A DNA stretch of 64,000 nucleotides, from contig CAZQVT010000001.1 in assembly GCA_964596875.1 (NCBI GenBank), positions 175,161 to 239,160 of the forward strand, read 5' to 3'. Position 1 is the first letter of the stretch. Every line of letters starts with the position of its first letter. The notes beneath the pieces are model-generated. The model had not been told where the DNA came from. It made no database searches and worked only from the letters and a program-made list of their open reading frames with translations. Positions 5,164 through 38,755 of the stretch are shown piece by piece. A program made the translations under genes and the position numbers. The DNA comes from an uncultured Candidatus Saccharibacteria bacterium. GTDB taxonomy: Bacteria > Patescibacteriota > Minisyncoccia > Phycocordibacterales > DATDWN01.

Positions 5164-5192
5164 TTGACGTTTATTTAAATAAATGATATACT
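5164..5192 (+). promoter_or_regulatory. sigma70-like promoter TTGACG-17-TATACT driving GC-rich small ORF
   Basis: near-consensus -35/-10 with 17-nt spacer ~55 nt upstream of ORF; GGGAGG RBS at ~5233. Confidence 0.55.
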
Positions 5193-5247
5193 ATATATAG
5201 GTTAATCCGCTCAAGGTTTTGCCTTGGGAGAAGGGAGGTAGATCAAA

Positions 5248-5460
5248 ATGACGCCACTTGCGAGTGAAGTACCGATCGTTCCGAGCATCATTCCTCTGTT
5301 GTTCGGTGAAGAGGGTGACTCCGGAGACGACGGAGACAACGGAAGCTCCGGAGACGACGGAGACGGCGGAACCGGTCAGGGTGATGATCCGGGGGATTCT
5401 TCGGGAGATGACTCCGGACCCGACCATGACGACTACGGTCACGACTCCGATGCCGACTAG
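5248..5460 (+). CDS. small acidic Asp/Gly/Ser-rich protein (70 aa), GC-rich minicassette 1
   Basis: ATG 9 nt downstream of GGGAGG; hydrophobic N-terminus then D/G/S low-complexity tail; internal DNA tandem repeats; GC far above flanks. Confidence 0.4.
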   Translation: MTPLASEVPIVPSIIPLLFGEEGDSGDDGDNGSSGDDGDGGTGQGDDPGDSSGDDSGPDHDDYGHDSDAD

Positions 5461-5486
5461 TTCGGCATGTGACTGACTGACGAGAG

Positions 5487-5513
5487 CGCCACTACCAATC
5501 CGGTAGTGGCGCT
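5487..5513 (+). terminator. hairpin GCGCCACTACC-AATCC-GGTAGTGGCGC after small ORF
   Basis: perfect 11-bp inverted repeat followed by short T stretch. Confidence 0.5.
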
Positions 5514-5539
5514 CGAACTTTTATATTATAATTTTACAC

Positions 5540-6820
5540 ATGAGTATATTTAGTGATTTTAATGTTGTAAGATCAGAAGATTTTCTTGAGAATGGCATTC
5601 GAGTAGTGCTTTTTAAACGTGAAGGTGCTCCAATTACTACCACAGCAATTTTAAAATCTGGTTCAAGACATGATCCCGAATCTATGCCAGGGTTATCACA
5701 TTTTATAGAACATATGATTACAAACGGGTCAAAAGTTTTTCCTACTAAGGATCTTTTGGCAGAACATATAGAATCGGTAGGTGGTGTTTATAGGGCTAGT
5801 ACAGGTCAAGATTCTATGATTGTAGACACTGAAATTTCTGATAGAGCTGATTATTCAAGGGTGGTTGATATCTTTAAGGCAACATTATGTGAACCGTTGA
5901 TGGATATAAAGGTTTTTGAGAATGAAAAAAAAGTGGTTGTGAAAGAAATTAAAAAAAGTGAGTCAAATCCATCTCAAATTGTGATAAAAACTGCAAGACA
6001 GTTATTTTTTTATGGCACTCCGCTTGAACATCCTGTTCTGGGCGATGAAAAAGCAATATTAGATTTTAAGTATGAGGATGTTTTAGATCAACATGTAAAA
6101 CTATTTGATAAATCACGAATTAGCATTATTGTATCTGGTGATATTGAGATGGATATGGTTATTGAAAAATTGAATGAAATTTCGTTTTTAGAAGGAAATA
6201 ATTTTTTGCCAAAGGCTGATAATCTGAATTTTTTAAACGAAAAAAAAATAAAATCAACTTTTTTTGATACAACTCAAACTTATATTTATTTTGGTGTCCA
6301 AGCCCCAGCCTCGTTTACTAAGGATTCTCTACATTTAAATATTCTAGGAAGCATTCTTGCCGGAGGAAGAAATTCAAGGTTAACAAAAAAATTGAGATAT
6401 GAAAAAGGATTGGTGTACAATGTTGGTTTCGGAAGAATTGGTGGAGTAAAACAGGGTTCATGGAATATAATTACTGATACCACCGAGGACAAGGTTCAAG
6501 AAGTTATTGATGAAATTATTAGTGAGATTAGTGATATTAGAAATTTTGGAGTTAAAGATTCAGAATTGGAGTTCGTTAAGAATAAGAGAATAAAATCATT
6601 GAAAAGAAATATGCAGACATCAAATGATTGGGTTGATTTTCATGCAATTGCTGAGGTTTTTTCGGAACAAACTTATAGCATAAATACTTATGTAGAAGAT
6701 ATAAAGAATACTACTGTAGAAGATATAAAAAAAGTAATAGATAAATACTTAGTTGATGACAAATGGAAATTAGCATTGTGTGGTAGAATAAAAGAAGAAT
6801 CAGTTAATATTAATTGGTAG
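5540..6820 (+). CDS. M16-family zinc peptidase (insulinase/pitrilysin-like)
   Basis: inverted zinc motif HFIEH near N-terminus, ~425 aa. Confidence 0.75.
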   Translation: MSIFSDFNVVRSEDFLENGIRVVLFKREGAPITTTAILKSGSRHDPESMPGLSHFIEHMITNGSKVFPTKDLLAEHIESVGGVYRASTGQDSMIVDTEISDRADYSRVVDIFKATLCEPLMDIKVFENEKKVVVKEIKKSESNPSQIVIKTARQLFFYGTPLEHPVLGDEKAILDFKYEDVLDQHVKLFDKSRISIIVSGDIEMDMVIEKLNEISFLEGNNFLPKADNLNFLNEKKIKSTFFDTTQTYIYFGVQAPASFTKDSLHLNILGSILAGGRNSRLTKKLRYEKGLVYNVGFGRIGGVKQGSWNIITDTTEDKVQEVIDEIISEISDIRNFGVKDSELEFVKNKRIKSLKRNMQTSNDWVDFHAIAEVFSEQTYSINTYVEDIKNTTVEDIKKVIDKYLVDDKWKLALCGRIKEESVNINW

Positions 6821-6838
6821 TATATAATGTCTGTATAA

Positions 6839-7531
6839 ATGAAAAAAGAATACACAGCAAGTGTGCATGACAATTTATTTCTTCAATTTTCATATTTTTT
6901 TATAAAAATAACACTAGGGACGCTGGTTAGGCTCATTTGGGTAAAAAAAGTAGAGGGGCTCAAAAATATTCCGAAGGATGGACCCCTAATCATAGCATTC
7001 AACCACCAAAGTTTTTTTGATTTTTTGTGTTTTGTATCAGTATCACCAAGGAAAATACACTTTTTATCTGCTGAAAAATTTTTTTCTCATATTTTATGGG
7101 GGCCATTGGTTAAATTAACAAGTCAAATAAAAGTAGAAAGACAAAGCAGTGATAAAATTGGTCTTCATAAGATCGTTTATGAACATTTATCAAACAATAA
7201 GGTTATAGGGATTTTTCCAGAAGGAACAAGATCTCCTCACGAAAAAGAAATGCTATTGGCTTTTACTGGAGTTGCAGAGTTTGCTTTGCGTGGTGGAGTT
7301 CCAGTGGTACCAGTAGGTATTAGGGGTGCGTATGAAGTAATGGCAAAACATGATAAGACGCCAAAGTTCAAAAAAATAGTTACAATACATGTTGGTGAGC
7401 CAATGCATTTTAACGAGTATCACAAATCTAAACTTGATAAAAAAACATATAGACTTGTGACAAATAAAATAATGATAGAAATAGCCAAACTTTCGGAAAA
7501 AAATTATCCATATTTACATATAGAAGAATAA
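6839..7531 (+). CDS. 1-acyl-sn-glycerol-3-phosphate acyltransferase (PlsC family)
   Basis: NHQSFFD (HX4D) and FPEGTRS motifs. Confidence 0.75.
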   Translation: MKKEYTASVHDNLFLQFSYFFIKITLGTLVRLIWVKKVEGLKNIPKDGPLIIAFNHQSFFDFLCFVSVSPRKIHFLSAEKFFSHILWGPLVKLTSQIKVERQSSDKIGLHKIVYEHLSNNKVIGIFPEGTRSPHEKEMLLAFTGVAEFALRGGVPVVPVGIRGAYEVMAKHDKTPKFKKIVTIHVGEPMHFNEYHKSKLDKKTYRLVTNKIMIEIAKLSEKNYPYLHIEE

Positions 7532-8190: not shown

Positions 8191-9737
8191 ATTTATTTGG
8201 TATCACATCCATTATAATATTTTTCGCAAGTATAGGCTTTGGGCTGTTTTTGTACTCATCCAACAGAGAGTCACGAGTAAACAGGTCGTGGTTTGTCGTT
8301 TCGATATTCGTCGGACTATGGGGGCTGTCTTTATATGGAGTTACTTCAACATCAAATATTTTTATAGCAGAAAAGTGGCAGTATCTACTAGATATTTCAG
8401 CGACTCTTATTCCCGTAACGTACTTTGCGTTTGTTTGTGACTTGCTGGGCATTAATAATAGTTGGTTTAGACGTCTCATACTTTACATGGGTGCAGTCGT
8501 ATCAATTTTTAGTGTAACTCCTTATTTTAAACTTGGTGTACATGAAAAGTATGGTTTTTATTGGGTTAATCCAGGTTTTTATTATGAGGTGTTTCCATTA
8601 TTTTTTGGTGGAGTAACACTTATATGTTTAGTTTTTTTGATAATTGGATATAAAAATTCTAAAGATAGTGTGTTCAAGGCTCAAATTAGAAACACATTGT
8701 TGGCAGGGATTATAGGTTTTGGTGGTGGAATTACAAATTTTTTCCCGCAAGTTATAAATATATATCCTTTCGGTAACTATTTTGTGATTCTTTACGTTGC
8801 TTTGATGAGTTATGGAGTTTTGAGATATAAACTTTTGAGTAAAAAAATTATATCCGCTCAACTAGTGAGCGGTGCAATTGTTTTAGTATTTTTGTTTAAT
8901 CTATTACAACCATCATCCTTATTGAACTGGATAGTTAATTTGATTTTGTTTATCTTAGTTCTTATATTTTCAATCTTACTGGTTAAGGGTGTATATAATG
9001 AAATTAGTCAAAAAGAGCAGATAGAGAAACTTGCGGATGATTTGCAAACTGCGAACCAAGGACAAGTAAACCTGATCCATGTTATGAACCACCAAGTTAA
9101 GGGACATTTGGGAAATGCAAAAAATATTTTTGCTGAACTTCTAACTGACGATTATGGAGCAATGCCGGAAGATGCAAAACCACTTTTGGAAAAAGGATTA
9201 CAAGAAACGAATTTGGGAGTGGAGTATGTGCAAAACATATTGCGAGGTGCTTCTGCTGTTACTGGAACTCTGCCTTTTGATATGAAGCCAATAAACTTTA
9301 AGGAAATAGTAGAGGCTGTTTTTGAAAAACAAAAAGGCTACGCAGAAAATAAAGGGCTAAATATTTCTTTGGATATTAAGGAGGGTAAATATGATTTGAC
9401 GGGGGACAGTATACAACTTTCTGAGGCGGTTAAAAATCTTATCGATAATTCCGTGAATTATACGGAAAAAGGAAATATAGATGTAACTCTTTCTCAAGAA
9501 GATAAAATAAGTTTTGTAATAAAGGATACTGGTGTGGGAATTTCGGATGAGGACAAGCCAAAACTATTTAAGTCTGGAGGAAGAGGAACTGATTCACTAA
9601 AAATAAATATAAACTCAACTGGTTATGGTTTGGCTTTTGTAAAAGGTGTTGCTGAAGCACATAAGGGGAAAGTCTCAGCAATATCAGAGGGCGTTGGCAA
9701 AGGATCACAATTTGTACTAGAATTGCCTAAAAACTAA
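8187..9737 (+). CDS. sensor histidine kinase with multi-TM N-terminal domain (orphan)
   Basis: ~6 TM helices, H-box HVMNHQVKGHL, N/G boxes (DNSVNYT, GVGISDED, GYGLAF); ATGA overlap with upstream gene. Confidence 0.8.
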   Translation: MNLFGITSIIIFFASIGFGLFLYSSNRESRVNRSWFVVSIFVGLWGLSLYGVTSTSNIFIAEKWQYLLDISATLIPVTYFAFVCDLLGINNSWFRRLILYMGAVVSIFSVTPYFKLGVHEKYGFYWVNPGFYYEVFPLFFGGVTLICLVFLIIGYKNSKDSVFKAQIRNTLLAGIIGFGGGITNFFPQVINIYPFGNYFVILYVALMSYGVLRYKLLSKKIISAQLVSGAIVLVFLFNLLQPSSLLNWIVNLILFILVLIFSILLVKGVYNEISQKEQIEKLADDLQTANQGQVNLIHVMNHQVKGHLGNAKNIFAELLTDDYGAMPEDAKPLLEKGLQETNLGVEYVQNILRGASAVTGTLPFDMKPINFKEIVEAVFEKQKGYAENKGLNISLDIKEGKYDLTGDSIQLSEAVKNLIDNSVNYTEKGNIDVTLSQEDKISFVIKDTGVGISDEDKPKLFKSGGRGTDSLKININSTGYGLAFVKGVAEAHKGKVSAISEGVGKGSQFVLELPKN

Positions 9738-10426
9738 TGGCACAGGAACAAGTTTGGGACAGGGAATACAAAACATCAAAGCTTTTAACAAAAGACAACA
9801 AACCACAGTCAGATGTGGTGCGTTTTGTTAAATACTTAAAAAAAGATATTAGTTTTCAAATAGAAGGTGCGCAAGTTTTAGATCTTGGTTCTGGCGCAGG
9901 TAGAAACAGTTTTTATTTTGCAGAACTGGGTGCGAGTGTTGTGGGGCTTGAGATATCTAAAACTGCAGTAGAGATCGCAAATAAATACGCAACTGTGGCT
10001 GGGCTCAATATAAAATACATAAAACAAAGTATTGGAGAGACTTTTCCGGTAGAGGATAGTTCAGTAGACATTTTATTAGATATTACATCTTCAAACTCAT
10101 TAGATGAAAAAGAAAGAGAAGTTTATTTAAGCGAATCTCACAGAGTTTTGAAAAATAATGGAATATTTTTTGTAAAAGCACTTTGTTCGGAAGGGGATGA
10201 GAATGCAAAATTTTTAATAAAAAACCATCCTGGTAAGGAAAAAGATACATATATAATGCCGGAACTTGGTGTCACAGAACGTGTTTGGAGTAAGCAGGAT
10301 TTTGTAGATACTTATTCAAAATATTTCAAAGTATTGAATATGGAGAAAAAAACTAGTTATTCGAGGATGAATGGTCGCGTCTACAAACGTAACTTCTGGA
10401 TTTGTTACCTAAAAACAGAAAAATAG
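9737..10426 (+). CDS. class I SAM-dependent methyltransferase
   Basis: motif I VLDLGSGAGRN; TAATG overlap with kinase. Confidence 0.8.
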   Translation: MAQEQVWDREYKTSKLLTKDNKPQSDVVRFVKYLKKDISFQIEGAQVLDLGSGAGRNSFYFAELGASVVGLEISKTAVEIANKYATVAGLNIKYIKQSIGETFPVEDSSVDILLDITSSNSLDEKEREVYLSESHRVLKNNGIFFVKALCSEGDENAKFLIKNHPGKEKDTYIMPELGVTERVWSKQDFVDTYSKYFKVLNMEKKTSYSRMNGRVYKRNFWICYLKTEK

Positions 10427-10569: not shown

Positions 10570-10597
10570 TTGACAAAATAGTTTTATTGTGTAATTT
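10570..10597 (+). promoter_or_regulatory. sigma70-like promoter TTGACA-16/17-TAATTT for GC-rich ORF
   Basis: consensus -35, AT-rich -10, AGGAGGG RBS at ~10621. Confidence 0.5.
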
Positions 10598-10633
10598 TAA
10601 TGTTGAACTGTTCCGACCCAAGGAGGGTCAAAG

Positions 10634-11305
10634 ATGGCGAAAAGCGTGAAAAAGGCTAAGGCTCGTCGAAACAACTGGAAGCGCGAAGCGACCGAAATCA
10701 TGGAGTTGCTGAAGGGCGCCAAGGCAACCATCGAGGCTCTCGAGCTCAAGCAGACTCAGTCGGATTCGGAGCTCGTCGGGGTGAAGGCCGAACTCGAATC
10801 GGCGAAGGCCGAACTCGACAAGGCCAAGGAAGAACTCGGTGCCGTGAAGGCCAAGTTGGCCGAAGTGGAGGCCGGCCTGTCGGCGCTGGAGACCACCAAC
10901 AAGGACCTGGTCAACAGGAACTTCGCTCTGGAAAGCGGCTTCTACGGCTCGCGTAGCAAGTCGCGTCGGCTCGAGAGTCGAAATCGCGAACTGCGGTTGG
11001 AAATCGACTCGCGCCGTCGGCTCGCCGGGGTTCTGGCTGTGTTTCATCACGCCAGTACCTGCACGGAGGACTGCTTAGAGGAGTTCGCGGCAGCCGGCCG
11101 GGCTGTGGGCGTCGACATCGACAAGATCGACAAGGCCCATGTGTCGGAAGCCTACAAGGCAGCCGGCCGTCGGCTTCACAAGCTGACCTGGGAGAAGGGT
11201 ATCCGCATGACCAAGTCGCACATGAGCCCTCAGTCAGCGACGGACTCACTCGAGGCTACGATCAACGCTGTCGAGCAGATGCTCGGGATGCGCGATCGGG
11301 TCTAG
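10634..11305 (+). CDS. coiled-coil hypothetical protein (223 aa), GC-rich minicassette 2
   Basis: heptad-like E/K/A/L-rich N-terminal half; strong RBS; GC ~58% vs ~35% flanks. Confidence 0.5.
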   Translation: MAKSVKKAKARRNNWKREATEIMELLKGAKATIEALELKQTQSDSELVGVKAELESAKAELDKAKEELGAVKAKLAEVEAGLSALETTNKDLVNRNFALESGFYGSRSKSRRLESRNRELRLEIDSRRRLAGVLAVFHHASTCTEDCLEEFAAAGRAVGVDIDKIDKAHVSEAYKAAGRRLHKLTWEKGIRMTKSHMSPQSATDSLEATINAVEQMLGMRDRV

Positions 11306-11323
11306 CCGAGGGGTGTAGAAGGT

Positions 11324-11358
11324 GGGGTGGCTTCGGTCGCCCCAGCTTCTTTTTTTTA
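11324..11358 (+). terminator. GC-rich hairpin + T9 run
   Basis: GGGGTGGC-TTCG-GTCGCCCC stem (with wobbles) followed by TTTTTTTTT. Confidence 0.6.
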
Positions 11359-11385
11359 TTTGAAATTTTGATATCATTTATAGTT

Positions 11386-13167
11386 ATGGAAAAAACTACT
11401 AAATCATCAAAGAACATACCGATAAGAAAAATTTTTGAGCAATATTGGATTGGTACTGAAAGTAAAAGAACTTTACTGTCTCTTTCAGTAGCCTTTTTCT
11501 TTGTTGCTCAGGTTGTGAGAGTGGTAATTCCTATTTTTTATAAAAAATTCTTTGATTTATTGAGTAGCTCAACAAATCCTGGTTCGGATGTGAATAATTT
11601 AGTTCATATTATATATATAGTATTGGGTCTAAATATTGTAAGTTGGGTTTCATGGAGAGTTGGTGTAAACATGTATAATGTAATGGAATCTCGTGTAATG
11701 GCAAAATTAAAACAAAATGCCTTTAACTACTTAACTAGACATTCATACACATTTTTCGCCAACACATTTGGAGGAAGTTTGGTTCAAAAAATAGGCCGTT
11801 TCAGTAGAGCATTTGAGGCCATACTAGATACTTTGGTGTTTAACTTGATGCCACTACTCATTGCGATTTTCGGCTCGATTTATGTAACCTGGACTATAGT
11901 TCCAGTGGTGTCTCTAATGATAATTGCCTGGGTAATAGTTTTTGTTGTGTTTAGTTTTGTTTTCTCAAATTGGAAACTTAAATACGACGAAATATCTGCC
12001 AAGGCTGACACTGCAACTACGGCATATCTTTCTGACGCTATTACAAACAGCACAGCGATGTCTTTTTTTACTGGTCATGAACACGAGTCGAACGGATTCA
12101 AAGATGTAACACAAGATCAAGCAAATAAGACATTGTTTTCTTGGAGACTTGGGGATGTTGTTGATGCTGTACAAACATTACTCATTTTAATAATAGAGTT
12201 TTTTGTATTTTATTATGCTGTCAGATACTGGAAGTCGGGTCTAGCAACTGTCGGTACTTTTGTTTTGATACAGTCTTATATCATTGGTCTTGCAAACCAA
12301 CTTTGGGGACTGAACAGAATAATCCGAAACTTGTACCAAAGTATTGCTGACTCAAAAGAAATGGTGGAGATTTTGATAACTCCATATGAAATTCAAGACA
12401 AACCAGATGCAAAAGATATTGTTGTGAAAAATGGTGAGATAAAGTTCGAGAATGTTACTTTCAATTTTGGAAAAGGGGAAGATGCCTTGAAGGAAATTAA
12501 CCTTACTATCGGTGCCGGTGAAAAAGTTGCTGTGGTTGGTCATAGTGGTGCGGGTAAAACAACTTTGGTTAGACTTATTATGCGACTTTATAATATTACT
12601 TCGGGACATCTATATATAGACAACCAAGATATTGAAGAAGTAACACAAGACAGTTTGAGAAATAACATAAGTTTTGTTCCTCAAGATCCAATACTATTTC
12701 ACAGAACTCTAATGGAAAATATTAGATATGGAAAGCGTGATGCAACAGATGAGGAAGTTATACAGGCTTCAAAACTAGCACATTGTGATGACTTTATAGA
12801 TAAACTTCCTTTGAAATACGATACATATGTTGGTGAAAGAGGTATAAAACTTTCTGGAGGTGAAAGACAAAGGGTCGCTATTGCCAGAGCTTTACTTAAA
12901 AAAGCCCCGATACTTATTTTTGATGAAGCCACGTCGTCACTCGACTCATACTCAGAGTCACTTATTCAGGATGCGTTAGAAAACCTAATGAAAAATAGTA
13001 CAACAATAGTTATAGCCCACAGACTTTCCACTATAAAGAGAATGGATAGAATTATTTCTATGGATGAAGGCAGGATTGTAGAAATCGGAACACACGAAGA
13101 ACTGGCACACAAAGAAAATGGTTTGTATAAAAAGTTGTGGGACTTACAGGTTGGTGGTTTTGTTTAG
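11386..13167 (+). CDS. ABC exporter, fused permease/ATP-binding (MsbA-like)
   Basis: 6-TM domain then Walker A GHSGAGKT, signature LSGGERQR, Walker B ILIFDEATS; ATG at 11386 preferred over TTG at 11368. Confidence 0.85.
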   Translation: MEKTTKSSKNIPIRKIFEQYWIGTESKRTLLSLSVAFFFVAQVVRVVIPIFYKKFFDLLSSSTNPGSDVNNLVHIIYIVLGLNIVSWVSWRVGVNMYNVMESRVMAKLKQNAFNYLTRHSYTFFANTFGGSLVQKIGRFSRAFEAILDTLVFNLMPLLIAIFGSIYVTWTIVPVVSLMIIAWVIVFVVFSFVFSNWKLKYDEISAKADTATTAYLSDAITNSTAMSFFTGHEHESNGFKDVTQDQANKTLFSWRLGDVVDAVQTLLILIIEFFVFYYAVRYWKSGLATVGTFVLIQSYIIGLANQLWGLNRIIRNLYQSIADSKEMVEILITPYEIQDKPDAKDIVVKNGEIKFENVTFNFGKGEDALKEINLTIGAGEKVAVVGHSGAGKTTLVRLIMRLYNITSGHLYIDNQDIEEVTQDSLRNNISFVPQDPILFHRTLMENIRYGKRDATDEEVIQASKLAHCDDFIDKLPLKYDTYVGERGIKLSGGERQRVAIARALLKKAPILIFDEATSSLDSYSESLIQDALENLMKNSTTIVIAHRLSTIKRMDRIISMDEGRIVEIGTHEELAHKENGLYKKLWDLQVGGFV

Positions 13168-13204
13168 TATTTTCGACTAAACCTAAATGTGATAATATGT
13201 TCCT

Positions 13205-14182
13205 ATGGCTAAAAAAACTTTACTGTCTGGGGTAAAACCTACTGGACGACCACATATTGGAAACTATTTTGGAGCAATGAAACAGTTTGTAGATATGCAG
13301 GAGGAGTTCAACTGTATGTGCTTTATTGCTGACTATCACGCTCTAAACTTTATTCAAGATGGCGCTGAAATGAAACAAAAAATCCTAGATTTAACACTAG
13401 ACTATCTTGCTATTGGTTTGGATCCTAAAAAAACTCTTATTTACAAACAGTCAGATGTGTCAGAACACACAGAACTAACATGGATTTTCGACACAATAAC
13501 AACCATGCCTTACCTTATGCGAGCACACGCTTACAAAGATGCTGAGGCTAAAGACAAAGAAATAAATGTTGGAACTTTTAACTACCCAATGCTAATGGCA
13601 GCAGATATTCTTTTGTATGATGCCGATGTTGTGCCTGTGGGGCAGGACCAAAAACAACACATAGAATACACACGAGATACTGCACAAAAGTTTAATGGTA
13701 CTTTTGCAAGAGAATCAGGCCGCGAAGTTTTCAAACTTCCAGATGCAAAAATATTAGACACTGTTGCGGTAGTGCCAGGAACAGATGGACAAAAAATGTC
13801 TAAAAGTTATGGAAATACTATTCCACTTTTTGCCAGTGACGAAGAAATAGAAAAAGCTGTTATGTCTATTGTTACAGACTCAAGCGCAGTAGGTGAGGGT
13901 GGACGACCAGAAAATGTTTATGCGATTCATAGACTGATAAGAAGTGAAGAAGAGCTTGCTCCTATATATGCAGAAAATATGGGTAAGTACAAAAACTTAA
14001 AAGAAGCACTCATAAAAGATTTAAAAGAATTTATAAAACCACTTCGAGAGAAAAGAGAGCAACTTGCAAGTGATCCGGACTATGTTTTGGATGTTTTGAA
14101 AGAGGGCGGAAAGAGAGCAAAGGCCATTGCAGAAAAGAAAATGGAGGAAGTTAGAGAGGCTATCGGGGTCAAACTATATTAA
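13205..14182 (+). CDS. trpS: tryptophan--tRNA ligase
   Basis: class I HIGH-like PHIGNYFG and KMSKS motifs, ~325 aa. Confidence 0.9.
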   Translation: MAKKTLLSGVKPTGRPHIGNYFGAMKQFVDMQEEFNCMCFIADYHALNFIQDGAEMKQKILDLTLDYLAIGLDPKKTLIYKQSDVSEHTELTWIFDTITTMPYLMRAHAYKDAEAKDKEINVGTFNYPMLMAADILLYDADVVPVGQDQKQHIEYTRDTAQKFNGTFARESGREVFKLPDAKILDTVAVVPGTDGQKMSKSYGNTIPLFASDEEIEKAVMSIVTDSSAVGEGGRPENVYAIHRLIRSEEELAPIYAENMGKYKNLKEALIKDLKEFIKPLREKREQLASDPDYVLDVLKEGGKRAKAIAEKKMEEVREAIGVKLY

Positions 14183-16538: not shown

Positions 16539-16648
16539 ATGATCCCGTAAGAAATAGAAGGAGATCGGGATTACCATTATCAGATAATTCAAATAATTAA
16601 ATAAGGAGTAGTAATTAAATATACGATCTCCTATTTCAAACGGGATGA
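16539..16648 (+). promoter_or_regulatory. structured leader / TIR element L1 enclosing aspS start codon
   Basis: 5' arm ATGATCCCGTAAGAAAT pairs with 3' arm ATTTCAAACGGGATGA (ATG = aspS start); same arms in L2 and L3. Confidence 0.6.
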
Positions 16649-18039
16649 CAAGAATTTATATTAAAGATTTGGGGGCACATGTGGGGGAGGAGGTCACTAT
16701 TAAAGGCTGGGTAGACGTACGCCGAGACCAAGGAAAAATGGTCTTTATCGATATGCGAGATATGTCTGGCCGAGTTCAGTGTGTGGTTTTGCCAAACTAT
16801 ACAGAGGTTATTGAAAAGGTTAAAGAAGTTAGAACAGAATGGGTTCTAGAACTAAAAGGAAAAGTAAACAAAAGACCAGAAAGAAACATTAAGGCTGGTG
16901 TACTAAACGGGGATATTGAGCTAGAGGTTACTGGACTAGAAGTTCTAAACAAGTCTGACACTATCCCTTTTGATATTTCAGGAGATACAAAAGAGATAAA
17001 CGAAGAGGTGAGACTAAAATATAGATATGTAGATCTTCGTTCTGACCGAATGCAGAAAAACATTCGAAACCGTCACAAGGTAATAAAACACATACGAGAT
17101 TTTCTAGATAAAGAAAACTTTATTGAGGTGGAAACTCCAATGCTAACAAAATCTACACCAGAAGGTTCTCGAGACTATGTTGTTCCAGCTAGACTATATC
17201 CTGGAAAGTTTTATGCATTGCCACAGTCTCCACAACAGTACAAACAACTACTTATGACATCTGGAGTTGAAAAATATTTCCAAATAGCCCGATGTATGCG
17301 TGACGAGGACACTCGTGGAGACAGACAACCAGAGTTTACACAACTTGATATGGAAATATCTTTCGTTGCACGCGAGGATGTAATGGAGCTAAACGAGAAA
17401 CTACTTATAGATCTAGTTACAAAACTTTATCCAGAAAAGAAAATCCAACAGGTTCCTTTCCCACGACTTACATATGCGGAGGCAATGGAGAAATACAACT
17501 CTGACAAACCAGACCTGCGAGAAGATAAAAACGATCCGAACCTTTTGGCATTCTGCTGGGTGATAGATTTTCCTTTCTTTGAGAAAACTGACACAGGAGC
17601 ATGGACATTTACTCATAACCCATTTTCTAGACCAAAACCTGAACACATGGATTGGTTAATGAAGAAAGAAAATATTGCTGAGATACTTACAACTCAATAC
17701 GACGTTGCGCTAAACGGCTTTGAAATCGGTGGGGGAAGTATAAGAAACCATAACCCAGAGGCACTAGAAAAAGTTTTTGAAATCATGGGTCACAGTATGG
17801 AAAACATCAAAGCAAACTTTGGTCACATGCTTTCTGCATTTTCATTAGGTACTCCACCGCACGGAGGTATAGCGTGGGGACTAGATAGACTTGTTATGCT
17901 ACTACAAAACGAACCAAACATTCGTGAAGTTATTCCTTTTGCAAAAACTGGTGAAGGTAAGGACCCTATGATGGATTCTCCAAGTGAAATCTCTGACGAG
18001 CAACTGCTTGAACTAAATATCAAAACACTAAAGAAATAA
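16645..18039 (+). CDS. aspS: aspartate--tRNA ligase (short form without GAD insertion)
   Basis: class II motifs FYALPQSPQ, GGGSIRNHN; N-terminal OB fold; 464 aa. Confidence 0.8.
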   Translation: MTRIYIKDLGAHVGEEVTIKGWVDVRRDQGKMVFIDMRDMSGRVQCVVLPNYTEVIEKVKEVRTEWVLELKGKVNKRPERNIKAGVLNGDIELEVTGLEVLNKSDTIPFDISGDTKEINEEVRLKYRYVDLRSDRMQKNIRNRHKVIKHIRDFLDKENFIEVETPMLTKSTPEGSRDYVVPARLYPGKFYALPQSPQQYKQLLMTSGVEKYFQIARCMRDEDTRGDRQPEFTQLDMEISFVAREDVMELNEKLLIDLVTKLYPEKKIQQVPFPRLTYAEAMEKYNSDKPDLREDKNDPNLLAFCWVIDFPFFEKTDTGAWTFTHNPFSRPKPEHMDWLMKKENIAEILTTQYDVALNGFEIGGGSIRNHNPEALEKVFEIMGHSMENIKANFGHMLSAFSLGTPPHGGIAWGLDRLVMLLQNEPNIREVIPFAKTGEGKDPMMDSPSEISDEQLLELNIKTLKK

Positions 18040-18056
18040 TTTGGTATAATTATTTC

Positions 18057-18359
18057 ATGAACTTAGAATATTTGTTTATATTAATTTTTTTACTGCTAAC
18101 TGGATTATTTATTGAATGGAAATACAAGATACATCTTTATCACTCTCGTCGCGAAAGATTTGTAGCTACATTGGTGATGTTTGTTATTGGTGTTGCATGG
18201 GATAATTTTTCAACATGGAGAGGTCACTGGATGTTTCCAGCAGAGGGAACTATCGGTATAAAAATTGGCTTTATCCCAATTGAGGAATATTTGTTTATAT
18301 TAATTGTCCCATTTTGGGTTCTGACAGTTTATAAATTAGTTGTAAAAAAAGTAAAATAG
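18057..18359 (+). CDS. lycopene cyclase domain-containing small membrane protein
   Basis: 100 aa, 3 TM, PxEE-like IPIEEYLF motif. Confidence 0.45.
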   Translation: MNLEYLFILIFLLLTGLFIEWKYKIHLYHSRRERFVATLVMFVIGVAWDNFSTWRGHWMFPAEGTIGIKIGFIPIEEYLFILIVPFWVLTVYKLVVKKVK

Positions 18360-18360
18360 T

Positions 18361-19089
18361 ATGCCGGATGAGTTTCTAGTTAAAACACATATTTTTGAAG
18401 GTCCATTGGACACACTCCTTTCTCTTATTGAAAAAAGGAAACTTTTCATAAACGATATTTCACTTGCACAGGTTGCCGATGACTATATCGCGTATATAAA
18501 AACTCTAGAAAATTTTCCAATAGCCGACTCCTCACATTTTATTCTTATCGCATCAACCTTAGTTTTAATTAAATCAAAATCTTTACTACCAGACTTGCAA
18601 CTAACCCCCGAAGAAGAAGAAAACATTCACAACCTTGAGGATAGACTAAAGCAGTACCAAAAATATAAGGCACTTTCGCAACATTTGAAAGAAAAGTTTG
18701 GGATAAACATAGAGTACCTAAGACTTCCAAGCAAAGAAAAAAAGATCGTTTTTACTCCTGACAAAAACACTGACATCTCTAAAATGCGTGAAGCGGTAAA
18801 AATACTTATCCAAAACCTACCTAAAAAAGAATTCGTCCCAAAGGCTATAGTTCAAAAAGTTATTTCACTTGAGGAAATGATGGATAATTTGTCGGAAAGA
18901 ATCACAAAGAGTTTCAAAATGAGTTTTAAGGATTTTTCTGGACACGGCAAGGCGGAAAAGGTAAATGTGATAGTGAGTTTCCTTGCGATGCTTGAACTAG
19001 TAAAACAGGGGATAATAAATGTAAGACAAGATGCGGACTTTCATGATATTGAAATGGAGACACAATCCATCGGTGTTCCAAGGTATTAA
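18361..19089 (+). CDS. scpA: segregation and condensation protein A
   Basis: N-terminal FEGPLDxLLxLI signature. Confidence 0.85.
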   Translation: MPDEFLVKTHIFEGPLDTLLSLIEKRKLFINDISLAQVADDYIAYIKTLENFPIADSSHFILIASTLVLIKSKSLLPDLQLTPEEEENIHNLEDRLKQYQKYKALSQHLKEKFGINIEYLRLPSKEKKIVFTPDKNTDISKMREAVKILIQNLPKKEFVPKAIVQKVISLEEMMDNLSERITKSFKMSFKDFSGHGKAEKVNVIVSFLAMLELVKQGIINVRQDADFHDIEMETQSIGVPRY

Positions 19090-20713: not shown

Positions 20714-20840
20714 AAAATTTTCAAATTTGGCCAATCTCATCTTCTAAATTTTCAAAATTCTCGTCACCTTAGCACTAACTAAGGCTTCTCACATTTTCAA
20801 AATTTATAAGCGACCTTGTCTCAAATTGTGAAAGTTTGAA
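20714..20840 (+). repeat. intergenic structured hairpin element, copy D
   Basis: inner stem CCTTAG/CTAAGG compensatory relative to copy C; conserved flanks and GTGAAAGTTTG tail. Confidence 0.7.
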
Positions 20841-20850
20841 AAGTTTTTGT

Positions 20851-20898
20851 AAACGAAAAGGCCGACACGATAGTCTGTATGACCTGATCGTATCGGCC
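20851..20898 (-). terminator. hairpin GGCCGA(T)ACGAT...ATCGT(G)TCGGCC + TTTTCGTTT ending GC-rich minicassette 3
   Basis: 11-bp imperfect inverted repeat followed by T run on - strand, just after stop of 20917 ORF. Confidence 0.55.
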
Positions 20899-20916
20899 GA
20901 AGCCCGTGTGTGTGGG

Positions 20917-21186
20917 CTAGAACCGCTTACTGACGTACTTGAGTGCTTCCCAGGTGAGTAACACCAGTGAGGAGTACACGATTGGCAGTGACGCCAGTCC
21001 GTACTCGTAGCTCTCGGTGAACATGGAGACCATGAGTCCCAGAGTCAGTACTCCGTGCAGAAGCAGGGGAACGAAGTACAGTACTATTGCAGGGAGAACG
21101 AGGCTAATGATTGCCCCGAACACCCTGAGCCACTTGTCGTCTCGATACCCGCCCATGAGGAGCGGGTTAAAGCCCAAGCATCCCAT
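20917..21186 (-). CDS. hypothetical small membrane protein (89 aa, ~2 TM), gene 3 of GC-rich minicassette 3
   Basis: ATG preceded by GGAGGAGCG; hydrophobic helices; GC-rich. Confidence 0.45.
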   Translation of the reverse strand: MGCLGFNPLLMGGYRDDKWLRVFGAIISLVLPAIVLYFVPLLLHGVLTLGLMVSMFTESYEYGLASLPIVYSSLVLLTWEALKYVSKRF

Positions 21187-21194
21187 CGCTCCTC

Positions 21195-21299
21195 CTACAT
21201 CTTGAAGGCGATAACCGCCAGGATTACGGCGATGCAGCCCAAGGCGAATTGGATTTCTCTTGTAGCCTTCTTGAAGTACTCGAACTGTTCTTCGGTCAT
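21195..21299 (-). CDS. 34-aa single-TM peptide (MTEEQFEYFKKATREIQFALGCIAVILAVIAFKM), gene 2 of minicassette 3
   Basis: not in ORF track (<60 aa); ATG 6 nt after TAGGAGGCT RBS; stop 8 nt before next ATG. Confidence 0.4.
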   Translation of the reverse strand: MTEEQFEYFKKATREIQFALGCIAVILAVIAFKM

Positions 21300-21309
21300 G
21301 CCTAGCCTC

Positions 21310-21735
21310 CTATCGAAGTTGGACCATCTCGCCGACCACGTCGTCCTTGCCTTCGAGGCTTTGGACGATGAAGTTGGTTGCTCCGCAGGCGTCGCAGAGG
21401 AACTTCACGACATCCATCTTCTGGATCTCGAGTTCCTCCACCTTGTCGATCGTGACGAAGTTCTTGTCGACGATCTTGCCGAGATGCACTCGGACCTTGC
21501 CCGTTGTGTTCAACTTGAACGCGATCACTCCGGGCTTGGTGTCGTACCGGAGCTTCATCCCGATGGCGCTGTGAGGCACGATGGTGAACTGGACGGAGTT
21601 TTCAAGTGCGATCGCGTACGGCTTCATGGGCTGGGTTGTTTCCACCCAGTAAACCATTGAAACTATCGCGACCGTGAGTGCGCAAATGACGAGTATTCCT
21701 CGCCAGTGGCGGGACAGAGTAGTGTCTTCGGTCAT
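21310..21735 (-). CDS. hypothetical membrane-anchored protein (141 aa, N-terminal TM), gene 1 of minicassette 3
   Basis: ATG 6 nt after GGAGGCC RBS, consensus promoter upstream. Confidence 0.5.
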   Translation of the reverse strand: MTEDTTLSRHWRGILVICALTVAIVSMVYWVETTQPMKPYAIALENSVQFTIVPHSAIGMKLRYDTKPGVIAFKLNTTGKVRVHLGKIVDKNFVTIDKVEELEIQKMDVVKFLCDACGATNFIVQSLEGKDDVVGEMVQLR

Positions 21736-21754
21736 GCTGTGGCCTCCGATATTA

Positions 21755-21782
21755 ATTATATCATTTATACAGTATAAGTCAA
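21755..21782 (-). promoter_or_regulatory. consensus sigma70 promoter TTGACT-16-TATAAT (on - strand)
   Basis: read from reverse complement; 5'UTR GTATAAATGATATAATTAATATCGGAGGCCACAGCATG is homologous to 5'UTR of cassette 6. Confidence 0.6.
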
Positions 21783-36053: not shown

Positions 36054-36160
36054 GATTGTTATTATAAGGTTTTTTTGGGTAATGTATAGGTTTGACCACA
36101 CCCTATCTATAATGTAGTCTGTATTGTGGAATACGGGTCATCTTGGCCCACGGAGAAACC

Positions 36161-36496
36161 ATGAGCGAGTCTCTTTTGGGTGAGGTTAAGTTCCCAGTGC
36201 AGTTTGCCTGCGATATCTGCGGGCATCACTTTTCGTGCGAGCGAGAGGGCCTGAAGAGCCACGAAGTCAACAGGAGGCACTTTATCAGACTGATTCGTAC
36301 CACGGTCGTTGCGGCCTGTCCCGCGTGCGATGCAAACGTGGGCAGATCATTCGATGAGCTGCTTCCGGATGCTCCTAACACTCTCGGTGAACTGCGAGCG
36401 CAGTACAAAGTCGCCCGCGGCAACGGTGCTGGGCCTCTCGAGGCCATCGGCTTCGCCAAGTTCAAGATTCGTCTCGTCAAGCGGAGGATCGCATGA
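36161..36496 (+). CDS. hypothetical Cys4 zinc-ribbon protein 1, GC-rich minicassette 5
   Basis: CxxC...CxxC, Arg/Lys-rich tail, GGAG RBS; ATG 36161 preferred over TTG 36143. Confidence 0.4.
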   Translation: MSESLLGEVKFPVQFACDICGHHFSCEREGLKSHEVNRRHFIRLIRTTVVAACPACDANVGRSFDELLPDAPNTLGELRAQYKVARGNGAGPLEAIGFAKFKIRLVKRRIA

Positions 36497-36783
36497 ATCG
36501 TCAGCGCCATCGGTTTGTATGCAGCAATTGTAGTACCTCATTCGAACCGGAGTGTCCGGTCGTCCCAACGGAGAACGTTCGGTCTGAAGTTCCGAAGGCG
36601 AAGCTCCTGGAGGCGAGTTGTCCGCTTTGCGGTTACACGGTCAAGATGATCGTGAACGGAGTGTTGGACATCGAGAGGCTTCATAGCGATCCGGTGAAAC
36701 GTCAGTACTTCCATCACAGGCGTCGCGGAATGGATGCTCCTCTAGCCAGGCGCTTGGCGAACCGGCTCGCCACAAGAAACTAG
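36493..36783 (+). CDS. hypothetical Cys4 zinc-ribbon protein 2 (translationally coupled)
   Basis: ATGA start/stop overlap with previous ORF, GGAGG RBS, CxxC...CxxC, basic C-terminus. Confidence 0.4.
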   Translation: MNRQRHRFVCSNCSTSFEPECPVVPTENVRSEVPKAKLLEASCPLCGYTVKMIVNGVLDIERLHSDPVKRQYFHHRRRGMDAPLARRLANRLATRN

Positions 36784-36806
36784 TTCCCGCCCCTCTGGGG
36801 CATACC

Positions 36807-36841
36807 AGCCCGTGGCCGAGTTCGCTCGTCGCGGGCTTTGT
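36807..36841 (+). terminator. hairpin AGCCCG...CGGGCT + TTT after zinc-ribbon pair
   Basis: 6-bp GC stem with weak U tract; also GCCCC-TCT-GGGGC hairpin at 36789-36801. Confidence 0.4.
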
Positions 36842-36853
36842 CACATCTCTTTG

Positions 36854-38755
36854 CTATTTATTGTCTTCTGGTTTCTTTTCCTCAAAGTCCGCGTCTCGAA
36901 CATTATCCCCTTCTTGTTTTGGAGCCTCAGTTCCAGCACTAGCGTTTGCTTTGTTTATCGCCTCCCCTATTTTAGATGTTTCGTTTGAAAGATCTACAGT
37001 AGCTTTTTTAATCGCTTCTATCTCTGAAGCAGTATTTGCAAGTACATCTTTCAATGCTTTAGATTTTTCTTCTACACTTGCTTTTACATCACTAGGCACT
37101 TTGTCGCCTGCATCTTTTAATGCTTTTTCTGCTGTGTAGATAAGTTGCTCACCAATGTTTTTTGCTTCAACAAGATCTTTTTTCTTTAAGTCGTCTTGTG
37201 CGTGCATCTCTGCGTCCTTTTGCATTTTTTCTATGTCCTCTTTAGAAAGTCCAGAACGAGCCTCTATGCGAATAGACTGCTCTTTGTTTGTCGCTTTATC
37301 TTTTGCTTTTACTGATAGGATTCCGTTTGCATCTACATCAAATGAAACTTCTACCTGAGGCATACCTCTTGGTGCAGGTGGAATACCGTCTAGAATAAAT
37401 CTACCTAGGGACTTGTTGTCACTTGCCATCGCTCTTTCACCTTGAACAATGTGAATTTCTACAGAAGTTTGATTGTCGGCTGCCGTAGAGAAAACTTGTG
37501 AACGACTTGCAGGGATAGTCGTGTTTCTCTCAACTAGTTTTGTTGCAACACCTCCCATAGTTTCGATACCAAGAGAAAGTGGAATAACATCTAGAAGTAG
37601 AACGTCTTTAACATCACCAGCAAGTATTCCACCTTGGATAGCAGCACCTAGGGCTACAACTTCGTCTGGGTTTATAGACTTGTTTGGATCTTTCTGGAAG
37701 AACTCTTTAACTTTTTCTGCAATTTTTGGCATTCTTGTCTGTCCTCCTACTAGGATAACTTCATTTACTTGTGAAGTAGAAAAACCTGAAGCCTCCATAG
37801 CTCTTTTTGTGATAGCCATTGCTCGGTCAATGAATTCTGCTGTAAGCTCCTCTAGTTTTGCTCGAGTTATTTTTATAAGCAAGTGTCGTGGACCAGAAGC
37901 ATCAGATGTTATGAACGGAATATTTACTTCAGACTCCATTGCCGTAGAAAGTTCTATTTTTGCTTTCTCTGCAGCCTCATCAAGGCGCTGTAGTGCTAGA
38001 GTGTCGCCTCTTAGGTCTATACCAGATTCCTTTTTAAATTCATCTGCAAGGAAGTTAATAATTTTTTGGTCAATATCTTTACCTCCCAAGTGTGAGTCTC
38101 CGTCTGTAGATTTTACCTCTATAACAGAGTCCCCTACTTCTAGAACTGACACGTCGAATGTTCCGCCTCCAAAGTCGAACACTACGATTTTCTCTTCTTT
38201 TTTACCCTTGTCAAAACCGTATGCAAGTGCTGCGGCTGTTGGCTCGTTTATGATTCGCAATACTTCAAGACCTGCAATAGCGCCAGCGTCTTTTGTTGCC
38301 TGTCTTTGTGAGTCGTTAAAGTATGCAGGCACTGTGATGATAGCCTGTGTTACTTTCTCACCTATTTTTGCTTCTACATCTGCTTTGATTTTTGAAAGCA
38401 CCATTGCAGATATTTCTTCTGGAGAATAGTTTTTATCTCCCATCTTTACACTTACCCCGCCCGTAGAGCCTTTTGAAACAGCAAAAGGAACTATTGCTTT
38501 GTCTTTTTGAACAGCTTCATCGTCAAATGTGTGACCAATGAATCTTTTGATCCCAAAAACTGTGTTTGTTGGGTTTGTTACTGCCTGTCTTTTTGCTAAG
38601 AGGCCCACAAGTCTTTCACCAGTTTTAGATGTTGCGATGATAGAAGGTGTTGTTCTTGCACCCTCTGAGTTTTCTAATATTTTTGGTTGCCCTGCTTCCA
38701 TGATTGCGACAGCAGAGTTTGTTGTACCTAAGTCGATACCTATTATTTTTGCCAT
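36854..38755 (-). CDS. dnaK: molecular chaperone DnaK (Hsp70)
   Basis: [16 protein letters not shown], full 633-aa Hsp70. Confidence 0.95.

Follow-up and report, generated by a model that had tools for sequence, protein, structure and literature searches.

A self-contained cassette for a small acidic protein is genetically tied to an M16 peptidase gene in a Candidate Phyla Radiation bacterium

M16B peptidases are established processors of small unstructured peptides, including the dedicated precursors of peptides that are made by ribosomes and modified after translation (RiPPs) (PMC8960859), and phage morons are independent transcription units that have been added between conserved genes (PMC3594210). 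The element described here has features of both. It occupies positions 5164-5525 of a 64,000-nucleotide stretch of DNA from an uncultured Candidatus Saccharibacteria bacterium (assembly GCA_964596875.1, contig CAZQVT010000001.1, positions 175,161 to 239,160), which as a whole is called the window, and it is a genuine small-protein gene, built as an autonomous transcription unit, that stands directly ahead of an M16 peptidase gene. As in the pairs of a class III lanthipeptide precursor and an M16B enzyme (PMC8960859), a tiny open reading frame (ORF) lies beside an M16 gene with an HxxEH motif and encodes a short, unstructured peptide. As with PqqA-like precursors, conservation lies in the C-terminal core. 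In contrast to these RiPP and cofactor pairs, no maturase (radical S-adenosylmethionine (SAM) enzyme, LanKC or PqqB-E) is conserved with the cassette, some of the peptides are leaderless, and the cassette does not open an operon but is a transcription unit apart, closed by a terminator of its own. Likeness to a phage moron extends to the sigma-70 promoter, the intrinsic terminator, the atypical composition and codon usage and the small ORF. Unlike a phage moron, however, the cassette resides among housekeeping genes of a cellular Candidate Phyla Radiation (CPR) chromosome, is under purifying selection across several species and has a constant M16 companion. The features of the cassette and of its junction with the peptidase gene are as follows.

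5164-5192, forward strand: sigma-70-type promoter, with a -35 box TTGACG at 5164-5169, a 17-nt spacer and a TG-extended -10 box TATACT at 5187-5192
5210-5228, forward strand: stem-loop CTCAAGG-ttttg-CCTTGGG in the 5' untranslated region, just upstream of the Shine-Dalgarno sequence and present in both the minimum-energy and the centroid fold
5231-5239, forward strand: Shine-Dalgarno (SD) sequence AAGGGAGGT, ending 9 nt upstream of the ATG at 5248
5248-5460, forward strand: coding sequence of the 70-aa acidic peptide, from the ORF list and the homologues
5319-5371, forward strand: in-frame tandem duplication, 27 nt x 2.0, with 92% matches and a 9-nt sub-period (TRF and a repeat finder)
5484-5523, forward strand: intrinsic terminator, a 13-bp perfect stem (5484-5496/5502-5514) with a 5-nt loop and a T-rich tail
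5527-5539, forward strand: -10 box TATAAT at 5527-5532 followed by 7 nt up to the M16 ATG, without an SD and abutting the cassette terminator
5540-6820, forward strand: M16 (pitrilysin-family) zinc peptidase of 426 aa with an HFIEH motif, starting 80 nt past the peptide ORF

The original prediction, made from the letters of this DNA, had described a self-contained unit, and its own promoter, SD, ORF and terminator were all found here. The proposed TTGACG-17-TATACT promoter is present at its place, the proposed GGGAGG ribosome-binding site lies within the SD at 5231-5239, the translation of 5248-5460 matches the quoted 70-aa peptide exactly, and the tandem repeats correspond to the 27 nt x 2.0 duplication at 5319-5371. 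The hairpin that had been put at 11 bp is indeed perfect, but it is 13 bp long. A GC content far above that of the flanks was likewise recovered, at 57-64% in 100-nt windows across 5250-5450 against 14-37% in the flanks and 37% in the window. The cassette has a GC content of 0.60 and a GC content at third codon positions (GC3) of 0.59, while the 11 neighbouring genes have values of 0.29-0.37 and 0.20-0.29, respectively. Treating the cassette as a lone unit was correct as to its self-containment and overlooked its constant M16 neighbour. Also overlooked were the high GC3 and the SD as marks by which the cassette, like four similar islands, stands out from all host genes.

Homologues were obtained from six other Parcubacteria metagenome loci through protein searches and by walking to orthologous M16 genes. 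They are listed below with the locus (L) and protein (P) numbers used where loci have to be told apart.

L005: homologue P0001, 60 aa
L093-L095: homologue P0069, 58 aa
P0070: homologue of 43 aa
L086: homologue of 43 aa
L088: homologue of 26 aa
L002 and L090: homologue of 23 aa
L087: 5'-truncated copy

The GC-rich stretch has three open frames, two of them sense and one antisense (70, 72 and 83 aa), so that the length of the ORF is no proof of a gene, and the evidence that goes beyond chance is comparative and comes from the homologous loci. Within a 27-codon core, the window and L005 differ by 13 synonymous and 3 non-synonymous codon changes, and their nucleotide differences number 3, 2 and 15 at codon positions 1, 2 and 3, respectively. 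An equivalent comparison of L005 and L087 gave 12 synonymous and 4 non-synonymous codon changes. The homologues retain an ATG 6-10 nt past the SD, the stop codon and the core sequence, and the ORF lengths (213, 183, 177, 132, 81 and 72 nt) are separated only by in-frame indels. The other five frames are either not conserved or run into stops or unrelated sequence, with no consistent start in the homologues. In the antisense ORF, each third codon position lies opposite a first position of the sense frame, and these first positions show hardly any variation. Comparison of these sequences shows that the frame beginning at 5248 is coding and under purifying selection. This frame had been preferred in the original prediction by SD spacing alone, and the homologues, the synonymous excess and the position-3 bias now agree with that choice. 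The possibility raised there that the true product comes from the +1 frame, a 72-aa ORF at 5258-5476 rich in Thr, Glu and Pro, did not survive the comparison, since that frame is open in the window but not conserved in the homologues. Repeat number, which had been named as something that might break the frame in relatives, leaves it intact: every length difference is a multiple of three, as are the 27-nt unit and its 9-nt sub-period.

The signals that surround the coding sequence also recur in the relatives. Single promoter or terminator matches were no more frequent in our scan than in shuffled sequence. The cassette promoter matches the consensus at 10 of 12 positions, with TG preceding the -10 box. 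A good consensus promoter with a TTGACA-type -35 box occupies the equivalent site in L005, L088 and L002 and a weaker one that of L093 (TAGACA) and L086, giving a -35/-10 pair in 5 of the 6 homologous cassettes; no such pair was found at the equivalent site in the L087 cassette. The promoter is presumed to be functional, and the cassette would be expressed from it. Stems at the place of the 5' stem-loop are formed by CTCAGG/CCTGGG in L005, CTCAGG/CCTGAG in L093 and GCCGTA/TACGGC in L088, and this element may serve mRNA stability. In a five-locus alignment of the terminator, 13 of 13 pairs are kept, and the five that are kept by compensatory double changes indicate that the terminator is under structural selection. 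It is spaced 24 nt (stem) from the stop codon of the ORF and 25 nt (end) from the M16 ATG.

The 70-aa peptide contains 30% Asp plus Glu and neither Lys nor Arg. A conserved I-phi-P-phi-phi-[C/F] hexamer at residues 14-19 is followed by a variable Gly/Asp/Ser linker and a conserved C-terminal core, GDDPGDSSGDDSGPDHDDYGHDSDAD, for which the family consensus is GDSS-x-DD(S/T)GPD(H/S)DDY(G/S)-x-(D/E)S. The members range from 23 to 70 aa, and the constrained part is formed by the C-terminal 16-26 residues; in the N-terminal part and the linker, length varies in frame by way of the 9-nt and 27-nt repeats. The duplication at 5319-5371 adds about 9-10 residues to the acidic linker relative to P0001 and P0069, and a 10-residue alignment gap falls there. 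The core Tyr is replaced by Met in L002, and there is no conserved Cys. In L087 (5790-5918) deletions have taken the promoter, the start codon and the N-terminus and have left 35 in-frame codons after a TGA, with the terminator kept and the M16 gene intact, so that this copy is probably decaying, a recent pseudogene. The exact peptide of the window is also encoded on an independent Logan contig from SRR12712864. AlphaFold2, run with a four-sequence alignment, returned no secondary structure (predicted template modelling score (pTM) 0.12, mean predicted local distance difference test (pLDDT) 63), and the peptide is predicted to be intrinsically disordered, as had been suggested originally. The hydrophobic leader suggested at the same time is not a secretion signal. 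By inspection, the N-terminus has no basic n-region and its 12 hydrophobic residues include three prolines; the marks of a Sec or Tat signal peptide (a basic n-region, an uninterrupted h-region of 10-15 or more residues, a cleavage site and conservation) were not seen. The homologues, of 23-60 aa, carry charged sequence in place of this leader or nothing at all, and only the hexamer is common to the longer members. No support was obtained for secretion or for a metal-binding role.

Searches of Pfam, PHROGs, NCBIfam and PDB profiles gave no significant match to the peptide. HMMER against 1.84 billion representatives returned only two other members, and HMMER together with a word-indexed profile search only P0001, P0069 and P0070, which shows how small the family is. 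Back-translated peptide patterns gave no confirmed relatives in JGI metagenome contigs or IMG/VR, and an exact-sequence cluster look-up gave no further members. Judged by these sequence comparisons, the peptides constitute a new, very small family of acidic mini-proteins that is confined to one lineage, matches no known family and is tied genetically to an M16 peptidase.

The evidence for this tie lies in the gene order. The next gene 3' of the peptide gene encodes an HxxEH M16 peptidase in 7 of 7 loci, about 75-85 nt away, and the genes 5' of the cassette vary in nearly every locus (an acyltransferase, a glycosyltransferase, a Flg_new_2 protein, an acyltransferase fragment and others, one of which is methionyl-tRNA synthetase (MetRS)-like by inspection of its sequence). 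The partner in the window has the properties of an M16B enzyme, namely the HxxEH motif, the Peptidase_M16 and M16_C domains (PF00675 and PF05193 in Pfam, precomputed for the identical protein P0002) and a length in the range of about 420-430 aa. Against NCBIfam it gave sub-threshold matches to the pitrilysin, PqqF and YfmF models (PqqF, 35.8 bits with a cutoff of 320), and the nearest M16 among genome representatives is 65% identical and comes from a Candidatus Zambryskibacteria metagenome-assembled genome. The M16 of L005 shows 24-29% identity to all other cassette-associated M16 proteins over 183 aligned residues and therefore represents a different M16 subfamily, and yet the L005 cassette core is 90% identical to that of the window, and homology extends to its terminator and TATAATATAAT junction. 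Neighbour joining groups the cassette-bearing M16 genes together.

Orthologues of the M16 at 56-60% identity (L089, L091 and L092) have no cassette. In L091 and L092 the M16 gene belongs to an operon, in which 2 nt separate it from a preceding class II tRNA-synthetase gene and scpA and scpB come after it; the synthetase gene, as read from its Pfam domains, is probably aspS. Its counterpart in the window (16645-18361) is followed by a 320-nt gap and no M16 gene, which is consistent with the M16 gene of this lineage having moved to 5540. A metagenome scan based on the M16 alignment, which served as a negative control, found no acidic ORF upstream of 80 distant M16 loci (22-29% identity) and yielded no new members. 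In L088, an 85-aa N-terminal acyltransferase fragment (9526-9783), homologous to the window gene at 6839-7531, stops exactly at the cassette -35 box, which suggests that the cassette and M16 gene were moved or inserted together by a rearrangement that cut the acyltransferase. A pairing that has outlasted rearrangements to either side of it and turns up again with another kind of M16 points to functional coupling.

The junction between the two genes is itself conserved. The order of terminator, T-run, TTTATAWTATAAT, 6-8 nt and M16 ATG, without an SD, is kept in five loci; in L088 and L002 a similar TATAAT precedes the M16 ATG by 8-10 nt, so that across all cassette loci a TATAAT stands 6-10 nt ahead of an M16 start that lacks an SD. 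This layout suggests that the M16 mRNA is leaderless, and its promoter would probably be set directly against the cassette terminator. Leaderless mRNAs may be widespread in the host, as suggested by a -10-like hexamer 5-15 nt upstream of the start codon in 15 of 43 host genes and by an SD motif at none of the 43 host gene starts in the window. The related loci L089, L091 and L092 give a similar picture, regardless of their GC content.

We tentatively favour, at somewhat less than an even chance, a peptide-peptidase module in which the peptide is a dedicated ligand of the M16 enzyme, either as substrate or as regulator. In this model, the sigma-70 promoter, the 5' stem-loop and the strong SD would give an abundant, disordered, polyanionic 70-mer from a transcript ended by the 13-bp hairpin, and the acidic peptide would serve as a dedicated ligand of the chambered M16B-type peptidase, which may recognize the C-terminal core. 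The enzyme might cleave or turn over the peptide, making it a substrate or precursor, or the peptide might fill the chamber and restrain the enzyme as a competitive regulator. Comparisons with other small proteins fit in part. Protease-inhibitor pairs such as staphopain with staphostatin or serralysin-type proteases with Inh also consist of a small protein encoded beside a protease, with a pairing kept across rearrangements, but the known inhibitors are folded domains of about 100 aa or more, whereas the cassette peptide is predicted to be fully disordered and is as short as 23 aa. Pup, DSS1/Sem1 and the C-terminal tail of single-stranded DNA-binding protein (SSB) resemble the cassette peptide in their size and extreme acidity, in the disorder predicted for them and in a short, conserved motif of acidic and aromatic residues at the C-terminus, by which a partner could be bound; there is however no sequence relationship (the PDB profile search was empty), a Pup-type GGQ/GGE end is missing from the cassette peptide, and its context offers neither a ligase nor a proteasome.

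Several observations weigh against a dedicated ligand. Adjacency is not interaction, and the linkage could be regulatory or purely physical, given that the M16 promoter abuts the terminator. The 23- and 26-aa homologues have no leader to remove, and simple maturation by a leader peptidase is accordingly disfavoured. The core is equally conserved beside two very different M16 proteins and thus gives no sign of co-evolution between peptide and enzyme, and M16 proteins with and without a cassette show no difference in isoelectric point or net charge and no sign of charge complementarity. The M16 of L087 is intact next to a cassette stripped of its promoter and start, so that the peptidase does not depend on the cassette. 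In addition, the core Tyr is replaced by Met in L002, and none of the window's four further GC-rich, SD-led cassettes is linked to a peptidase.

The main alternative is a moron-like accessory gene unrelated to the M16, that is, a horizontally acquired cassette whose peptide would act independently of the enzyme, for instance by decoying or mimicking, as a polyanion, in an action on proteins of another cell or of a phage. We consider this unlikely, although it has to be taken seriously. Adjacency to the M16 gene would then go back to one ancestral insertion and persist because the two genes cannot easily be parted at the terminator-promoter junction that they share. The cassette has its own promoter and terminator, its GC3 of 0.59 compares with 0.20-0.29 in host genes, its Asp codons GAC and GAT are used 13:5 as against 3:29 in the M16 gene (p = 9e-6), it has an SD where 43 of 43 host genes have none, and four similar islands occur in the 64 kb, including one that sits between dnaJ and dnaK. 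It is also absent from related genomes and fits the definition of a moron except for the phage setting (PMC3594210). Upstream of the M16 orthologues in L089, L091 and L092, where it is missing, the gene order around the M16 differs as well and no clean empty site was found. A single ancestral insertion does not account, however, for the L005 pairing, in which the M16 belongs to another subfamily. The seven copies, although diverged, all have a high GC3 (0.47-0.78) next to an AT-rich M16 gene, and because this GC3 has been kept although about half of the core codons have changed synonymously, the cassette is not a recent import undergoing amelioration. No relatives were found in viral contigs, phage records or plasmids, and neither mobility genes nor flanking repeats were seen; the neighbours are an ABC transporter, a rhodanese, acyltransferases, a HAD hydrolase and a histidine kinase, with dnaK and dnaJ elsewhere in the window. 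The peptide might instead, in line with the precursor peptide suggested originally, be a RiPP- or cofactor-type precursor whose acidic, Tyr-containing C-terminus is modified by enzymes encoded elsewhere and released by the M16, which we regard as doubtful. Pairs of a precursor peptide and an M16 protease include PqqA with PqqF and SboA with AlbE-AlbF, and the core is conserved, as it is in PqqA or MftA. M16B peptidases are bona fide RiPP proteases (PMC8960859), the M16 of the window has its weak, sub-threshold PqqF match, the module of L088 has radical SAM or SPASM genes on its flanks and that of L086 has one 2 kb upstream, and in L088 there is also a radical SAM-SPASM gene with an acidic, Cys-containing ORF of 44 aa behind it. 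A dedicated protease is thus near the cassette as expected of a RiPP locus, but an adjacent modification enzyme, a leader-core layout and a known precursor family (in NCBIfam or Pfam) were not found. No maturase is conserved with the module; radical SAM genes, which lie close to only 2 of the 7 loci and are missing in the window, were rejected as a conserved feature, no modifying enzyme occurs within about 5 kb of the cassette in the window, and tblastn with the radical SAM proteins of L086 and L088 returned nothing from the 64-kb window. Conserved Cys residues are lacking, the Tyr is not invariant, the members of 23-26 aa are without a leader, and the family, with its conserved C-terminus and its variable or absent N-terminus, shows the reverse of the typical RiPP pattern. 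As for PqqA and pyrroloquinoline quinone (PQQ) in particular, the core has D-x-D-D-Y and no Glu-x3-Tyr, and there are no pqq genes nearby.

Two further readings were weighed. In one, the ORF would be a cis-acting leader peptide, an attenuator in which translation of the Asp/Gly-rich sequence senses charged tRNA or amino-acid supply and controls read-through into the M16 gene. Leader peptides of the trpL, hisL and pheL type share with the cassette a short, compositionally biased ORF and an intrinsic terminator directly upstream of a structural gene; the terminator ends 25 nt before an M16 ATG that has no SD, the peptide is 30% Asp plus Glu, and in cassette-free genomes the M16 gene follows 2 nt after the class II tRNA-synthetase gene that is probably aspS. 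We nevertheless judge attenuation very improbable. The cassette differs from such attenuators in several respects: the five-locus consensus fold consists of the terminator only, without a conserved antiterminator pairing; a small hairpin that surrounds the stop codon in the window is not shared by L005 or L093; conservation reaches past the Asp codons to other residues (SGPD, YG), whose codons have changed synonymously; 24 nt separate the stop codon from the stem; a conserved TATAAT belonging to the M16 gene itself stands ahead of it at a leaderless distance; and the unit, with its strong SD, is in other ways organized like an ordinary expressed gene. The L087 M16 persists, moreover, beside a start-less cassette, and the strong SD and stabilising 5' hairpin suit a product made in quantity. 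In the other reading, the cassette would not be protein-coding in the 5248 frame at all and would yield a structured small RNA or a product of the +1 (Thr/Glu/Pro) or antisense frame. Structured RNAs in AT-rich genomes typically stand out by a high GC content, the fold has a z-score of about -2.8, and the +1 frame and one antisense frame are open. The substitutions concentrate at position 3 of the 5248 frame, however, the third positions of the antisense frame are the rarely changing first positions of the sense frame, and the alternative frames are broken in the homologues. A gathering-threshold Rfam scan and ARAGORN found 0 matches in the whole window, and a structured RNA was rejected as a candidate, because the z-score of about -2.8 for 5200-5525 applies to both strands and derives mainly from the terminator. 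This reading fails the sequence comparison and we give it almost no credence.

The dedicated-ligand reading and its competitors have to be seen against the four other GC-rich, SD-led islands of the window.

10587-11392: island encoding a 223-aa coiled-coil protein
20837-21766, reverse strand: island encoding three small membrane-type proteins of 141, 34 and 89 aa
33505-34075: island encoding a 149-aa membrane protein
36093-36951, opposite strand, between dnaJ and dnaK: island encoding two Cys-rich, zinc-ribbon-like proteins of 111 and 96 aa

Each of these islands has a consensus-like promoter, a strong SD, a GC3 of 0.64-0.78, a terminator and ORFs without a family match. Counting the cassette as the fifth, an SD precedes 8 of 8 island ORFs and 0 of 43 host genes (Fisher p = 1.6e-9). 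For the other four, neither scans of viral contigs nor tblastn searches of phage records gave a match, and no relatives were found in the loci compared. Parcubacteria relatives with about 50% GC are also without SD sequences, and the donors are therefore probably not close relatives. In the literature we found no description of SD usage or of GC-rich cassettes in Parcubacteria or CPR genomes.

Some further elements were noted near M16 genes and elsewhere in the window. In L088 (about 13394-13468 and 12994-13203, both forward) and L002 (about 11330-11420, reverse, and 11729-11827, forward), more mini-cassettes with promoter, SD, ORF and terminator lie near the M16 gene, and they encode several short acidic Pro/Gly/Asp peptides (MADDDCPEPADHGLDRDGNPPSDN; MSYSMTDLDPGPTDPGPEPDPGPAKTVE) and one basic 32-mer. 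L088 also has, at 11340-12822 on the reverse strand, a GC-enriched radical SAM-SPASM gene followed by the 44-aa ORF MEPGFVSLSEQAKGRVARMSATGCDDTCSAYPEEGGDDGGGRDD, convergent with the M16 gene, and this gene and ORF look like a sactipeptide/ranthipeptide-type RiPP pair. A conserved 5' leader, made up of a short hairpin and then CCTAT(T/C)TC(A/T)AACGGG, stands directly upstream of ATGs at 16645 (forward), 27075 (forward) and 63266 (reverse), ahead of genes for a class II tRNA-synthetase (aspS/asnS/lysS type), a glycosyltransferase-28 protein read as murG and a YchF-type GTPase. The murG-type copy of the leader is conserved in L091, upstream of 11151, and the leader may be a translation or regulatory element.

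Should the cassette belong to a special class of short, GC3-rich, SD-led genes, framed by a hairpin and a terminator and set in an AT-rich genome whose other genes lack an SD and are often leaderless, and should the composition of this class be under selection, with the polyanionic peptide and the M16 forming a new effector-processing module, its GC3 would be held by selection and would not be a fading trace of transfer, because it persists in seven diverged copies. This is a speculative reading to which we attach little weight. If true, it would imply a separate regime of translation or mRNA stability for a special regulon, perhaps one of small effector peptides of an episymbiont, or, alternatively, a continuing exchange with an SD-using, GC-rich partner organism. 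The contrast between a host without SD sequences and with a GC3 of about 0.25 and five units with strong SD sequences and a GC3 of 0.6-0.8 bears on gene flow and specialised expression in ultra-small symbionts. Unannotated small genes abound in CPR bacteria, and through the comparisons made here one such ORF becomes a gene under purifying selection that is tied to a named enzyme. Bacterial M16B peptidases are mostly without assigned substrates, and the paired peptide of 23-70 residues would provide a ready candidate ligand.

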